A stretch of 64,000 nucleotides of DNA from Candidatus Aenigmatarchaeota archaeon (GTDB lineage: Archaea; Aenigmatarchaeota; Aenigmatarchaeia; CG10238-14; SCSR01). This document shows, piece by piece, positions 2,290 through 25,251 of this stretch (its first letter is position 1; each line of letters begins with the position of its first letter). The notes under the pieces were generated by a model, which had not been told where the DNA came from, did no database searches, and worked only from the letters and a program-made list of their open reading frames with translations. The translations under genes were made by a program, and so were the position numbers. Location: assembly GCA_018304615.1 (NCBI GenBank), contig JAGVVV010000008.1, positions 25,741-89,740 of the forward strand. Reading direction: 5' to 3'.

Positions 2290-3588
2290 TCAAATTACAA
2301 CTGCAGTTCCACCAGCATGCCAACTAACTCTTGGCCTAATATTAACTGTGAATATTTTTTCCAGATTGTCGTCAAGAATCATCGCGGCCCCAGGCCATCT
2401 AGGAAGAGAGTTGATGTATTTCCACATGTCCTCCATTAGATATGTCTGCATTACTGCGTTGAGAGCCATCAAATCAGCTTTAGAAGTGAGTCTATGAGTG
2501 ATAACTAAATCTGTCTGACTAAGAATATCCTGATGGATTTTGTTGGGCATCTGTGTTATCATAACCAAACTCACTCCAGGCTCTCTTCCTTCCTTTGCTA
2601 TGGTAAGAAACGGTCCTGATGAAACTGTTTCCCTATCTGATGGTGCCCAGTTGTGTGCTTCGTCTGCAATTAGCCAGACTATAGGATATTTTTTCTTCAT
2701 GACAGTGCCTTCCATTTTCGCCAGCTCCTCCTCTTTTCTAGCAACAACTCTGAACTGATAAATTTTTCTTGCGATAAGAGCAACAAGGAAGTTTCTTACT
2801 GACCACGCTCCAGAGCTTCTTAATCTGGATAAATCTACTACAGTTATCTGGCCTGGTTGGACTAAATCATCTATATTAACTCCTTCAGTTCCGAAAACAC
2901 CCCATTGATTAGCTACTGTGAGCATGTTTTCTAATGCATCCTTAACTTCAGGAGCAGTCTCTCTATCATCCCTGATTTTCGAAATTAAATCTGGAATCAT
3001 AAAATGTTGACCTGATTCAATTAATGAATTGACATTTTTCTCTAATGCAATTGAGACTGCATTCGTCCTCTCAAGATTGAAAGCCAGTCCCCATTCATCA
3101 CCTGTGAACTCCCAAGGCAAGACTGAAATTCCTGCATCAACTGGCAAACCAGATTCTTTGTACTCCTCCAATTGCTTGAAAGGAACAAGAACTTTTATAT
3201 TTTCAAACCCTTTCGGTTCCAAATCCCAATCCTTAAGAAGTTCGGCTTGTTGGTCATTAGGCCTCTTCATGCTCCAAAAAATTCCCATCGTGTCAATTAT
3301 GACCACAGAAATATTGTTCCTATATTCTTCAGGCAACATGGCAATTTCTTCTGCGATAACTCCGCCAACATAAGATTTACCAGTTCCTCTTTTCCCGGAA
3401 ACAAGGATGATGTGCGGCCTCAACAGATCAAGAAGAACTTTTGTCGTGATGTGAGCATCTTCGCCAGTTCCGACAATGTGTTTGCCGATGTATCCAACAC
3501 CCTTGTCCTGGAATTTTTGCGCATCTTCCTTAATCCTTCCGACAATTGTGTATGTCTTAACCGTCTGGTCTAGAGTTGGCATATACAT
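2290..3588 (-). CDS. HerA/DUF87-family P-loop ATPase
   Basis: Walker A GKRGTGKS, Walker B LIADEAH, AKEGREPGVSLVMITQ. Confidence 0.85.
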   Translation of the reverse strand: MYMPTLDQTVKTYTIVGRIKEDAQKFQDKGVGYIGKHIVGTGEDAHITTKVLLDLLRPHIILVSGKRGTGKSYVGGVIAEEIAMLPEEYRNNISVVIIDTMGIFWSMKRPNDQQAELLKDWDLEPKGFENIKVLVPFKQLEEYKESGLPVDAGISVLPWEFTGDEWGLAFNLERTNAVSIALEKNVNSLIESGQHFMIPDLISKIRDDRETAPEVKDALENMLTVANQWGVFGTEGVNIDDLVQPGQITVVDLSRLRSSGAWSVRNFLVALIARKIYQFRVVARKEEELAKMEGTVMKKKYPIVWLIADEAHNWAPSDRETVSSGPFLTIAKEGREPGVSLVMITQMPNKIHQDILSQTDLVITHRLTSKADLMALNAVMQTYLMEDMWKYINSLPRWPGAAMILDDNLEKIFTVNIRPRVSWHAGGTAVVI

Positions 3589-15538: not shown

Positions 15539-16567
15539 TTATTTCTTGAACCAGCTTTTTAAATTGGCCTGTGTGCCTTTAGACAAGTTCTGCTGCAATC
15601 TTTCTATTCCCTTCTCTATCCTTTTCCTGGAAAAGTCGTGCTCGCCAGACATGAATTTCAGAATTTTTTCTGGATTGGGTTCCTTCCATTCGAAATCATA
15701 TTTATCTGTGGTCGGAGGTTCCATGAAAAAATTGAAAACTTCTTCTGCCTCGATATCAAAATCCCACTCGATTTTCTTTAGAACTGCATTCAACGTCTTG
15801 TTCTCCTTTACCAATTCAAGGGATCTTTTCGGACCAAATCCTTTCACACCCCCAGGGTTGTAGTCAGTTCCGATTAAAATTCCGATCAAAATCAATTGCT
15901 TTTGGTTGATTCCCAGAGCTTCCAAAACTTTTTTCAGTTCTATGATTTCTGGTTTTATTTCCACATAAACTTCTTTCTTCGGGATTTTCCTCCTCCCTGA
16001 GATTGAGAGGTTTTTTACAAGGCGTGGAGAACCGAAAAGAAGACTGTCAGCATCCTGAGAACCTGTGGCCCATACGTCACCTTTCTTGCACATAACCGAA
16101 CATTGCGCTTCGCCTTCGCTAGGAGCTTGTAACCATGGAATTCCCATGGCATCCAGAAGTTTCTTCGATTCTTCTATCATCTCATCTGTCAGCCTAGAAG
16201 CTGCCTGAGCGTATGTGATTGCCTTCTCGCCTTTTTTCAAGGCTTCGGCCCATTTTTCAGTCGCTTCTTTCTTTCTCTGCTCCCTTTCCTGGATTGTCTT
16301 TTTCTTGAACGCCGGAGGCTCGCCGTCGAAAACGAAAATTGGTTTGATTCCTGCTTCCAGAAAATTAGAGGTCCTGTAAAACAGTCCTGAAAGATGTGAT
16401 GTTATTCTTCCTTTGGAATCTCGCAAAGGCTCGCCAGTCATCCTGTCCCTGATTATTGTGATGAACTGGTAGAGGGTGTTGAAAGCGTCGATAGCGATTT
16501 TCTTCCCAGACAACTCTATCAGTTCGATTTCCTGCTTGGGAATAATCTCAGAAATTTGGACTCCCAT
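15539..16567 (-). CDS. fen: Flap endonuclease 1
   Basis: IAIDAFNTLYQF, APSEGEAQ, GTDYNPGG, C-terminal PIP box QANLKSWF. Confidence 0.97.
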   Translation of the reverse strand: MGVQISEIIPKQEIELIELSGKKIAIDAFNTLYQFITIIRDRMTGEPLRDSKGRITSHLSGLFYRTSNFLEAGIKPIFVFDGEPPAFKKKTIQEREQRKKEATEKWAEALKKGEKAITYAQAASRLTDEMIEESKKLLDAMGIPWLQAPSEGEAQCSVMCKKGDVWATGSQDADSLLFGSPRLVKNLSISGRRKIPKKEVYVEIKPEIIELKKVLEALGINQKQLILIGILIGTDYNPGGVKGFGPKRSLELVKENKTLNAVLKKIEWDFDIEAEEVFNFFMEPPTTDKYDFEWKEPNPEKILKFMSGEHDFSRKRIEKGIERLQQNLSKGTQANLKSWFKK

Positions 16568-18611: not shown

Positions 18612-19075
18612 AACTGCCATACCACATACCAAAAGATTTGCTAAGCATTTTCTCAAAGACGAAACTTAACGTCCAGCCTGGAGAGTATCTGATTGTCAGA
18701 TTGCCTTTGAAGTATGGGGTCATGCTGAGAGAACTTTCAAAATTCGTGAGAGAACCGTTTTTTAATTATACAGTAGAGCCACAAGAAATAACTCTGGTCG
18801 TTCATGAGAGGGATTGGAGTAATATTGGAAGAGATTTCATTGAGACGCAGATAGAGCACGGTTACAATATTATCACGATGGACGTGACTGTGGATTTAAA
18901 TGTGATAGGTTACCTTGCTGTGATTTCCAGATTGCTCGCTGACGTGGGTGTCCCCATAATGGTTGTTTCAGGCCATAGGACTGATCATATACTTATCAAA
19001 AAATATGATCTGCAGAAAGCTATTTTCGTTTTACAGGATTTGATAAATAGCTGCAAAAATATAGTAATTGTATGA
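18608..19075 (+). CDS. ACT-domain protein
   Basis: LNVIGYLAVISRLLADVGVPIMVVSGHRTDHILIK. Confidence 0.8.
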   Translation: MKLPYHIPKDLLSIFSKTKLNVQPGEYLIVRLPLKYGVMLRELSKFVREPFFNYTVEPQEITLVVHERDWSNIGRDFIETQIEHGYNIITMDVTVDLNVIGYLAVISRLLADVGVPIMVVSGHRTDHILIKKYDLQKAIFVLQDLINSCKNIVIV

Positions 19076-19416
19076 AAAATAATCTGAAAATTCTAATGCC
19101 GACTCTCAGAGAAAAAGAAAGATATGTAGCCTTTCAAGTGATTTCTGAAGATTCAATAACTTATTCGGATTTAGAAGCTGCGATCTGGAACTCGATGATG
19201 GATTTTTTTGGAGAATATGGGACTGCTAAGACTTCGATGTGGATTGTTAAGAATCTGTATGACGAACAAAATCAAATCGGAGTGATAAGATGCAACAACA
19301 AATCGGTCCAAGAAGTGATCACGGGATTGGGACTGATTTCAAGGCTCGGAGATGTAAGAGTAACTATAAAAATTTTATCCGTCTCAGGAACCATTCGCGG
19401 TTTGAAAATAAAGTAA
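19072..19416 (+). CDS. rnp2: Ribonuclease P protein component 2 (Pop5)
   Basis: PTLREKERYVAF, GVIRC, SVSGTIR. Confidence 0.92.
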   Translation: MKNNLKILMPTLREKERYVAFQVISEDSITYSDLEAAIWNSMMDFFGEYGTAKTSMWIVKNLYDEQNQIGVIRCNNKSVQEVITGLGLISRLGDVRVTIKILSVSGTIRGLKIK

Positions 19417-19490: not shown

Positions 19491-20432
19491 ATGAAAGAAA
19501 TATTAACCAATTTAGAAGATGTATCAGGTAAATTCAAAAGTGTACATATAGATAATGGCTTTGTGTTCATAAAAGTCGGAAAGTATACGGCAAAAATCAA
19601 AATTCCTTTTAGAGTTAGCAAAGAACTTGCATCTTTATATGGACATGTTTTAGGCGATGGCCATATTAAAAAAGATGAACAACACTTTCACTATGTAAAC
19701 AAAAATAAGGATTTAATTGAAGAAGTCAAATCAGAAGTCAAAAATATATTTGCCGTTGAGACCATGGAGTATTTTAGAGAAAACAAACAAATCTATGATT
19801 TGAATTTCCCGGTAGTAATTGCAAAACTGCTTGTTTTATTAGGGTTTCCAAAAGGTAGAAAATCAATTCAAATATTGTCAATTCCAGAATGGTTGAAAAA
19901 TGAATCTGTAGATATCAAAGCGGCTTTTATCAGAGCTTTATTTGATGATGAAGCGTGGGTAGAAATAAAACAGGGTGGATTTTGTATCGGCTTTGGCCAA
20001 AACAAAAATGTCAACTTATTGCAATATCACAAAAATTACATTGAAGAAATTAGGAATATTTTGAGTCAATTAGGTGTCAATTCAAGTAAAATTTTTCAAA
20101 AATCGCAAAAAGGAGATTCTATACAACTTGGTTTTAAAATTTTAGGATTACAAAATCTTACTAATTTTAATTCAAAAATAGGATTTCTCTCTGAAAATAA
20201 ACAAAAAAGATTAGAATTCGTCTTGAACAATTTTAAACAGATACAGTTCGGTAAAAAAGAAGCGAAGTTAAAAATATTGGAAAAATTAAACGTACCTATG
20301 AAAAGTAAAGAATTGGCATTTTTGCTTAATAGGGATCAAAAAACTATTTGGAAACATTTACATCAACTGCATAGAAAAAATTTAGTCACTAAAATCGGTA
20401 CTAAAAATAAAGTATTTTGGAAAAGTGTCTAA
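19491..20432 (+). mobile_element. Free-standing two-motif LAGLIDADG homing endonuclease with C-terminal winged HTH
   Basis: LASLYGHVLGDGHI and AFIRALFDDEAWV helices; KSKELAFLLNRDQKTIWKHL; AT-rich; inserted between rnp2 and psmA; no intein splice motifs. Confidence 0.88.
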
Positions 20433-20531
20433 CGCTAAAATTTAAAAGGGCACAAATTTAAACTATTATCAACAAGTTATTACAAGGTGATTCTCAAAGA
20501 ATGAGAAAATTATTTGCATTGGTGATAGGCA

Positions 20532-21336
20532 ATGCCTGAAATGATGCCTGAATATAATCTAGTGGCTAAAGACCACATGATGTTCAAATGGGCTACGACA
20601 GGACAAATTTGCCTAGTTAATAACTAGCAAAGTCCATTTGCTGTATCGTACCCAGTCATAAAGCTGGTATGAGGCAAAATTTAGTCCTGATGGCCGCCTG
20701 TTCCAAGTAGAGTATGCTAAGGAAGCAGTGAAGAAAGGATCGACTTGTTTGGGAATAGTTTTCAAAGATGGAGTATTGCTCGCGACAATCAGACCGTCGA
20801 CTGCACTGATGGTGCCTGAATCTCTGGAGAAGATTTTCCAGATTGACGACCATCTTGGAGCAGTGGCTTCTGGATATCTCGCTGATGCAAGAGTTCTTGC
20901 AAACCAGTCTAGGGTGAAGGCGCAAGTCCACAAAATCACTTATGAAGAGCCAATAGATGTCTGGGGTGCGGCAAAAGTTTTGGGAGACAGGATGCAGATT
21001 TCGACAATTTATGCAGGCTTAAGGCCGTTCGGAGTTTCGTTCTTGATTGGTGGAGTAGATAGAACAGGTCCTCATCTAGTTGAAACAGATCCTTCTGGAA
21101 TGCTTTACGAATGGAAGGCGAATGCTCTCGGAAGAGGAGCTCCAGTAGCAAACAAGATATTCAAGCAGAGATGGAAAGATGGCCTGAGCGAGAAAGAGGC
21201 CGTGGATATTGCTCTAGATGTAATCCAGAAGACTGAAAAAGAGAAAAAGGCAAACGCTATTGACGTTGCTATAATAACAAAAGACCTGAAATTCAGAAAA
21301 TTGAGGGAAGAGGAAATCAAGAAGGCTTTAAAGTGA
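20532..21336 (+). CDS. psmA: Proteasome alpha subunit, intron-split: join(20532..20555,20588..20606,20638..20644,20679..21336), 235 aa
   Basis: Spliced start [39 protein letters not shown] matches the alpha-subunit signature; GGTGAT RBS at 20521-20526; normal rnp2-psmA-SBDS context. Confidence 0.95.
20556..20587 (+). other. psmA intron 1 (32 nt, BHB-type)
   Basis: Central helix GAAT/GTTC, bulges AT^A and AA^A, inner stems ATC/GAT and GTGG/CCAC; outer helix relaxed. Confidence 0.85.
20607..20637 (+). other. psmA intron 2 (31 nt, canonical BHB)
   Basis: Central helix GGAC/GTCC, bulges AA^A and AT^T, inner hairpin TTTG..CTAGTT-AAT-AACTAG..CAAA, outer CA/TG. Confidence 0.92.
20645..20678 (+). 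other. psmA intron 3 (34 nt, BHB-type)
   Basis: Central helix TGCT/GGCA, bulges GT^A and AA^A, inner stem TCGTACC/GGTATGA. Confidence 0.9.
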
Positions 21337-24364: not shown

Positions 24365-24802
24365 TTATCCTGTCTGCCAGCAAGACATCGAATTCTCGCA
24401 AGTTGCTGATACAGGCAATCCTGAGCATGTTCCCAGCACTCTTACGAATGTTGGAAGGGATGATACGTTAACTCTGGCAGTACCAACATCTCCTGGAAGA
24501 AGCGAAGTAGCAGATAATGTGATTGTAGTCATATTGTTTGGAATCAAAGCGCTAATCGCGTTAATAGTTTGCTGACTTGGATTTGAAAATGTGATATTCA
24601 ATGCACCAGCTACCACGCTAGGAGCTTTTACAAGCTCTATTACAAGAGCAGGAGTGCATTTTGCTTGAGCAGCAGATTGATTTGAGACCTGCTGTGTTTG
24701 TGTGTTTGTCAGACCTGTCAGCCAAACAGACATTATTCCTCCTATAGCTACAGTAAAAGCGATCAAGAGTACAATCGCGATCATTGGAGAAATTCCTTTC
24801 AT
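24365..24802 (-). CDS. Archaeal type IV pilin-like protein
   Basis: Class III signal MKG/ISPMIAIVLLIAFTVAIGG. Confidence 0.88.
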   Translation of the reverse strand: MKGISPMIAIVLLIAFTVAIGGIMSVWLTGLTNTQTQQVSNQSAAQAKCTPALVIELVKAPSVVAGALNITFSNPSQQTINAISALIPNNMTTITLSATSLLPGDVGTARVNVSSLPTFVRVLGTCSGLPVSATCENSMSCWQTG

Positions 24803-25251
24803 TAAGTACCCCTCCAACAACTATAAGCTGGCCTGCAAGTGAAAGACACAGGCAAACCAGTACATACACCGCTCACTCTTACAAGTGTGGGTAATGTCGA
24901 ATAATTACCAACTGTTATGAAATATGAAGCACCTGAGCCTAGATTTGGAACGACAGATGCGTTTGTAGTGACTGTTGATCCTGAAACTACAGAAACGTTG
25001 ATGTTAATTATCTGGTTTTGACTGGGATTTGTAACTGTCACATTAATGAGATCTGTAGCAGCGGCTGTGTTGGAATCTACTCTGTCAATCATCAAGGAAG
25101 GTGTGCATTTTACTTGAGAGGAAGATTGATTTGAAACTTGCTGGGTCTGAGTTGTTGTCAGGCCAGTGATCCATATAGAGAGAACTCCTCCGATTGCTAC
25201 TGTAAAAGCAATCAAAAGAATGACTGCAATCATAGGAGAGATTCCTTTCAT
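24802..25251 (-). CDS. Archaeal type IV pilin-like protein (tandem paralog)
   Basis: MKG/ISPMIAVILLIAFTVAIGG; similar to neighbour throughout. Confidence 0.88.
   Translation of the reverse strand: MKGISPMIAVILLIAFTVAIGGVLSIWITGLTTTQTQQVSNQSSSQVKCTPSLMIDRVDSNTAAATDLINVTVTNPSQNQIININVSVVSGSTVTTNASVVPNLGSGASYFITVGNYSTLPTLVRVSGVCTGLPVSFTCRPAYSCWRGT

Follow-up and report, generated by a model that had tools for sequence, protein, structure and literature searches.

Predicted BHB introns in the proteasome alpha subunit gene of an Aenigmatarchaeota order, and a LAGLIDADG endonuclease-like gene as a candidate agent of their spread

A bulge-helix-bulge (BHB) intron in the pre-mRNA of cbf5 has been described in Crenarchaeota (Yokobori 2009, PMC2738675), and the accessible text of that article calls its origin unclear. 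In the portion of a 2020 article available to us, cbf5 is the only reported case, to which BHB processing in the 5' UTR of HVO_1309 is added (PMC7714728). Outside mRNA, excerpts from the literature describe Thermoproteales 16S rRNA hairpin introns that are co-converted by the LAGLIDADG enzyme of an adjoining intron (Pog.S1205/Pog.S1213; PMC4496867), collaborative homing in phages, namely T3/T7-like phages and a cyanophage (PMC10448857), and multiple-intron tRNA genes in Thermoproteales, DPANN and Asgard archaea (PMC11291895, PMC5829648). The inserts reported here resemble the cbf5 intron, so far as the latter is set out in the text at hand, in their small size (16-44 nt for cbf5, 13-37 nt here), in being delimited by a BHB and in interrupting a conserved motif close to the gene's 5' end; the cleavage position, after the second of the three bulge bases, is likewise the one we infer. 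Further works on the cbf5 pre-mRNA intron are reportedly Watanabe 2002 and Yoshinari 2006.

The window, which is the whole 64,000-nucleotide stretch of DNA that was analysed, belongs to an Aenigmatarchaeota genome (G000) of 785 kb that is 89% complete. An ORF beginning at position 20728 represents the proteasome alpha subunit, psmA, without its start. In a profile search, the frame from 20680 matches positions 10-229 of 230 of TIGR03633, and also PRK03996. Pfam model PF10584 has a single match in G000, at positions 8-23 of 23, so that this psmA is the only one found in the genome; a second intact copy, which a preliminary description of this DNA had named, together with exclusively unspliced transcripts, as an observation that would speak against splicing, was thus not encountered in the assembled 89%. 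Joining the four exons listed in Table 1 yields one frame of 708 nt, encoding 235 residues.

Table 1. Features of the psmA locus (window positions) and three inserts of a second genome, G024 (contig positions).
Feature	Position	Strand	Evidence and remarks
pop5/rnp2 (RNase P protein component 2), usual upstream neighbour of psmA	19072..19416	+	Profile match, locus comparison
Free-standing LAGLIDADG endonuclease-like gene, 313 aa, two motifs, C-terminal HTH	19491..20432	+	Between pop5/rnp2 and psmA
Upstream ORF, 12 codons	20501..20539	+	Sequence; stop overlaps first psmA codons
GGTGA, likely ribosome-binding site for start 20532	20521..20525	+	Sequence; function inferred
psmA exon 1	20532..20555	+	8 codons; residues as in G001, synonymous changes only
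Predicted intron 1, 32 nt, BHB	20556..20587	+	Falls between codons; site common to 13/26 interrupted genes
psmA exon 2	20588..20606	+	19 nt; encodes YDR gate motif
Predicted intron 2, 31 nt, BHB	20607..20637	+	After codon base 1; site common to 9/26
psmA exon 3	20638..20644	+	7 nt; takes part in the exon-side pairing of intron 2 and in the intron 3 central helix
Predicted intron 3, 34 nt, BHB	20645..20678	+	After codon base 2; site common to 2/26
psmA exon 4 (proteasome alpha subunit body)	20679..21336	+	TIGR03633, PRK03996, PF10584
G024 alba insert	C1:675450-675480	-	BHB; behind LAGLIDADG gene that also has NUMOD3 motif
G024 uS10 insert	C2:127937-127965	+	BHB; behind LAGLIDADG gene
G024 fbp insert	C1 near 46650	+	BHB; found by checking genes behind LAGLIDADG genes

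A genome of the same genus, G001, has an uninterrupted psmA, also of 235 residues. The spliced G000 product equals the G001 protein over its first 35 residues and is identical to it at 208 of 235 positions overall. Codons 1-17 of the two genes, which include the small exons, differ by eight synonymous and no non-synonymous changes. The role of the YDR gate motif among them is treated in PMC10349882, of which a part was available. The preliminary description had placed inserts of 32, 31 and 34 nt (97 nt together) before the ORF, and on re-reading its insert coordinates, lengths and three junctions are exact, as is its stop codon at 20625 in the unspliced frame. Its further claim that cuts by the EndA rule regain the missing N-terminus agrees with the start shared with G001. 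It did not include the upstream LAGLIDADG gene, the spread of interrupted genes over the order, or an insert in rtcB of the same genome, all described below.

The three inserts have central helices GAAT/GTTC, GGAC/GTCC and TGCT/GGCA, each pairing at four of four positions between 3-nt bulges, and each insert has an internal hairpin, in keeping with the geometry first proposed for them. The intron-side (inner) helices are 3, 5 and 7 bp long for introns 1, 2 and 3, respectively, while the exon-side helices form 2, 4 and 2 of 5 pairs, making the motif of introns 1 and 3 a relaxed one. A search of psmA that was blind to BHB structure required at least three inserts and allowed 18 placements. Exactly one of these has a BHB at all three junctions; it is the placement proposed earlier, and the protein that it yields starts like that of G001. 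The BHB shape by itself is frequent, with 406 matches in G000 as compared with 374-444 for six wrong geometries (no excess), and the weight of the evidence therefore lies in BHB borders that coincide with breaks defined by homology. As a working test, we required at least three pairs in the central helix and at least three in the inner helix, which 0.8% of 200,000 draws of random position and length pass.

A fold that contains all three BHBs has an energy of -40.3, as against -47.9 for the minimum-energy fold, and so lies 7.6 kcal/mol higher. Given this difference, the weak exon-side helices of introns 1 and 3 and the double use of exon 3, splicing would be stepwise or co-transcriptional. EndA would cut the psmA pre-mRNA after the second base of each bulge and RtcB would rejoin the ends; since introns 2 and 3 share the 7-nt exon 3, they would form and leave in succession. 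From sequence comparison, it is very probable that the three inserts are removed from the pre-mRNA as BHB introns by EndA and RtcB.

Interrupted psmA genes recur across this order of Aenigmatarchaeota. Among 118 genomes, 114 have a psmA match, and after a partial match in G096 was set aside, 113 were counted: 26 are interrupted and 87 uninterrupted (63 of the latter called from the match table alone, without sequence reading). The first 30 loci read comprised 8 interrupted and 22 uninterrupted genes. A further 20 loci, apparently truncated or with stops, were then read, of which 18 have inserts and two that had been suspected (G022 and G065) have none. Together the 26 genes carry 43 inserts, each 18-37 nt long, and the eight sites that these occupy fall in a stretch of about 60 nt; 14 genes have one insert, 7 have two and 5 have three. 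The site of intron 3 has a neighbour 2 nt downstream that is used by 9 of the 26. Every interrupted genome has one psmA match. In the rest of the class, 105 genomes have a match, and in 104 of them the domain is seen from position 1 (one match is unlisted); this comparison is blind to sites 6-9.

The BHB test is passed by 42 of the 43 inserts, compared with the random rate of 0.8%. All 43 have at least three of four pairs in the central helix and 36 have all four, while in each of nine shifted registers not one of the 43 pairs completely. For 15 inserts the register is fixed by homology alone; 14 of these pass the test and 11 pair at all four positions. The helix also covaries with synonymous changes in the exon. 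At site 9, GAAT/RTTC alternates with GAGT/RCTY, and at site 28 the exon strand reads GGAC, GAAC or GCAC, each with a matching partner in the intron. Frameshifts would result from 31 of the 43 inserts, and all 12 in-frame inserts contain a stop codon (shuffle p ~0.002). The multi-intron splicing of psmA mRNA put forward in the preliminary description is supported by these comparisons: it appears to be the only reading that fits the restoration of the G001 protein, small exons with synonymous changes only, and helices that covary over 26 genomes.

Two readings without introns must be weighed here. Ribosomes might skip the inserts by bypassing or frameshifting at the hairpins, one of which is found in every insert, or might start at GTG 20728, from which an ORF of 202 codons runs. 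Translational bypassing, however, requires matching take-off and landing codons, which occur in none of the 43 inserts; most sites split a codon, and no register other than that of EndA preserves a 4-bp helix with 3-nt bulges. A protein begun at 20728 would lack the YDR gate motif, yet the codons upstream of that start change only synonymously. We regard translation without splicing as very improbable. The other reading makes psmA a pseudogene or an assembly artefact, with an intact copy in the unassembled part of the genome; this could draw on the 89% completeness of G000 and on the fact that DNA support comes from contigs. That support, on which the preliminary description had made its case depend, consists of contigs from four of eight DNA runs (X1, X4, X5 and X6), which span all inserts with no difference, although the four may not all be independent, X1 and X4 being possible sources of G000 and X5 and X6 coming from the same study as X1; runs X7, X8, X9 and X10 have no coverage of the inserts. 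Identical inserts in four runs, the return of inserts at the same fixed sites in 26 genomes, each with a single psmA match, and small exons free of non-synonymous decay leave a pseudogene or artefact close to refuted, with scarcely any probability.

Rfam families searched over the psmA insert region gave no match. A motif like GGTGA stands at the same position before psmA in most relatives. A scan for similar small upstream ORFs overlapping psmA found them at 11 of the 26 interrupted loci and at 4 of 24 uninterrupted ones, and the overlap is possibly a sign of translational coupling with psmA. Elsewhere in the window, two adjoining ORFs on the minus strand (24365-25251) have near-identical N-termini, which we take to be pilin-like.

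Directly upstream of psmA, and missing at the corresponding place in G001, is the LAGLIDADG gene listed in Table 1. Its product matches PF14528 above the cut-off (E 2e-10) and HTH_5 weakly, and a search for solved structures related to it by sequence found none. The acidic residues of both LAGLIDADG motifs (GDG and FDDE) are kept in seven of seven aligned homologues. With a query cut-off of 1e-20, 12 of the 26 interrupted psmA genes have a homologue as their immediate upstream neighbour, and none of the 87 uninterrupted ones does. The twelve span nine genera and two families, and the Fisher probability of 2e-9 overstates the association because kin are not independent. The remaining 14 have no detected endonuclease neighbour (13 were read, and one is cut by a contig end); G056 was not counted as endonuclease-adjacent, pop5 lying in between. 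A further LAGLIDADG-HTH gene is found farther upstream in the same cluster at L284:1-1173 (in G056, before pop5) and at G078:C7:9855-10697. Of the 12 psmA genes with an endonuclease neighbour, ten carry an intron at one of the sites 6, 7 and 9, and the other two only at 28 or 29. The endonuclease as a marker of site-9 introns only, a pattern that held in four of four cases within the first 30 loci, failed in the larger set.

Within genus g6, two endonuclease types occupy the same place, one matching at 41-51% over its full length and the other at 38% over part. A tree of the psmA body groups G000 with intron-free G001 (100/100), whereas the 30 nt before the psmA start in G000 agree at 24-25 of 30 positions with three endonuclease-bearing g6 genomes and at 13 of 30 with G001. 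This upstream similarity could instead come from constraint on the small upstream ORF. Third codon positions in the first 21 codons of psmA have no shift toward g6. The distribution of psmA introns and endonucleases is patchy over a tree in which 11 of 31 inner forks are open.

These patterns make homing with the LAGLIDADG gene a likely route of intron spread. The endonuclease would cut the uninterrupted 5' end of psmA in the DNA of another cell, and repair would then carry over the endonuclease gene along with an intron whose presence abolishes the target. Such endonuclease genes would in time disappear or be exchanged for others, and the introns, which persist, would stack. Against this stands the view that the spliced BHB introns arose and spread without an endonuclease, for instance by moving out of tRNA introns or through an early gain followed by scattered losses. 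The LAGLIDADG gene would then be a bystander, or else a regulator that has been domesticated and prefers the same conserved operon. Consistent with such a history are the lack of a detected neighbour at 14 of 26 interrupted psmA genes and four of six interrupted rtcB genes, a tRNA-Cys with a 20-nt BHB insert in G000, and the C-terminal HTH of the LAGLIDADG protein, a domain also found in regulators of the WhiA kind. Spread without an endonuclease would leave unexplained a neighbour at 0 of 87 uninterrupted psmA genes and a pairing that recurs at four unrelated genes of G024, and a bystander or regulator sits poorly with the retention of both acidic motif residues and with two endonuclease types at one place within g6. 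We judge an endonuclease-free origin unlikely, though it keeps a real share of the probability.

Genes other than psmA also have BHB inserts. In G000, spliced alignment against relatives shows that the conserved N-terminal motif of rtcB is interrupted by a BHB insert of 32 nt (G000:C8:21672-21703, plus strand), with no endonuclease gene directly upstream. Five further rtcB loci, chosen from split matches among 37 of 41 genomes with a match, have inserts of 16-29 nt at one nearby site, and in each the sole register allowed by homology is the BHB register. An endonuclease neighbour is present at two of these six interrupted loci. G016 has an uninterrupted rtcB copy alongside the interrupted one. 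Its rtcB (L176) has a second insert, of 13 nt, near the GFDINC motif, and G030 (L175) may have a second insert there as well; long in-frame interruptions near the same motif in rtcB of G021, G030 and G034 are intein-like. In G024, BHB inserts occur in alba (31 nt), uS10 (29 nt), rtcB (18 nt) and fbp (23 nt), and all four genes have a LAGLIDADG gene upstream. Conversely, behind six of the eight LAGLIDADG-like ORFs of G000 there is no gene with a convincing interruption.

The genome-wide search for BHB-interrupted genes that the preliminary description had called for succeeded in part, in that it found the rtcB insert of G000. Filtered spliced alignment of G000 against 579 and 462 reference proteins returned only psmA and rtcB and merged introns 2 and 3, so that more introns in G000 are possible. 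The de novo BHB scan of G000 with a coding filter returned rtcB and one unsupported match, missed psmA, and is therefore insensitive to stacked inserts and to inserts shorter than 25 nt. A low-penalty spliced alignment produced noise and was not used. Over 402 spliced alignments, G001 has no BHB inserts.

Several tRNA-like sequences also lie directly behind LAGLIDADG-like genes. A tRNA-Cys with a 20-nt BHB insert is seen at G000:C12 ~2656-2752 (minus strand) and one with a 31-nt insert, as reported by ARAGORN, at G024:C1:371540-371646 (plus strand). Two tRNA-like 3' halves, at G000:C11 ~15900-15960 (plus strand) and G024:C1 ~650820-650910 (minus strand), may belong to split or permuted tRNAs; no matching 5' parts were found for them. 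A location of two endonuclease genes inside tRNA introns was considered and rejected, since no convincing tRNA was recovered.

The machinery that would splice these introns is encoded in G000. It has one EndA gene (190 aa; L031:1474-2046, minus strand), closest to the single-subunit enzyme of M. jannaschii, with no second EndA-like subunit found in the genome, and one RtcB gene, which is the interrupted one. The Tyr and His of EndA are kept, while the Lys, present in five of five aligned solved enzymes, is Ala in both G000 and G024; this catalytic residue is named in the available part of PMC5829648 (K334 of 5x89). An insertion between the catalytic Tyr and His aligns without gaps to that of N. 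equitans and is taken to be the L3 loop, which the same source links to disrupted tRNA genes in DPANN archaea.

For the explanation as a whole, psmA introns spliced by EndA and RtcB and spread by collaborative homing, we estimate a probability of roughly 0.7. To a fuller version we give about even odds: free-standing LAGLIDADG endonucleases would attack the conserved 5' ends of core genes, each bringing a protective 30-nt BHB intron, and repeated waves would stack introns into multi-exon genes, with exons as short as 7 nt, that the tRNA machinery splices in order, the mRNA of rtcB included. Among the observations that weigh against the explanation as a whole are the Ala for Lys in EndA, the all-BHB fold above the minimum, the 14 of 26 psmA genes and four of six rtcB loci without a detected endonuclease neighbour, the six LAGLIDADG-like ORFs of G000 that precede no convincing case, and the uninterrupted rtcB of G016.

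The interruption of psmA is real and its probable splicing well supported by comparison, and the route of intron gain is testable. What appears new is the presence of three predicted mRNA introns in one essential-type gene, eight sites over an order, and a candidate engine of spread adjoining the gene. With a candidate endonuclease beside psmA, the origin of ORF-less archaeal introns becomes testable with one enzyme and one target. If rtcB mRNA is spliced by RtcB, synthesis of RtcB could depend on RtcB itself. In practice, DPANN core genes (psmA, rtcB, alba, uS10 and fbp) are wrongly called truncated or split, with consequences for marker-gene phylogeny and for conclusions about gene loss, and archaeal genes in multiple pieces may escape gene callers. 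The literature searched, which took in few subscription journals and no supplements, contained in its accessible text no report of psmA or rtcB introns, of multi-intron archaeal mRNAs, or of free-standing endonucleases beside BHB mRNA introns; an earlier report is possible given that scope. The available portions of PMC12397907, PMC11291895, PMC13149111, PMC7994747 and bioRxiv 10.64898/2026.10.13.758758 describe none of these.

Measured against the systems introduced at the outset, as far as the accessible text of each describes them, this one combines features otherwise found apart. The cbf5 case involves one intron in one gene, a hetero-oligomeric EndA and no endonuclease link, and its spliced cDNA has been shown; here, by contrast, a DPANN order has up to three predicted introns per gene, at eight sites in psmA and in five genes overall, together with a single-subunit EndA and an endonuclease-like gene upstream, all known from sequence. 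The Pog.S1205/Pog.S1213 pair offers the same short, ORF-less BHB hairpin intron, clustered sites and a LAGLIDADG endonuclease encoded nearby, but its host is an rRNA gene, its enzyme is intron-encoded and cleavage at the empty site of the hairpin intron has been shown, whereas the hosts here are protein-coding genes and the putative endonuclease gene is free-standing, before the start codon. Multiple-intron tRNA genes likewise pack several short BHB introns with relaxed motifs into a short stretch of RNA, together with an L3-loop alpha4 EndA in DPANN archaea, but the host here is an mRNA reading frame. Collaborative homing in phages also has a free-standing endonuclease gene adjoining a conserved gene with an intron, located in the phages at the cut site. 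Its introns are self-splicing group I introns, unlike the 30-nt introns of a cellular chromosome described here, which we infer to be spliced by proteins. The distribution that marks collaborative homing, with the endonuclease gene beside the intron-bearing allele and absent beside the intron-free one, is the one seen at psmA, in 12 of 26 and 0 of 87 genes, respectively.
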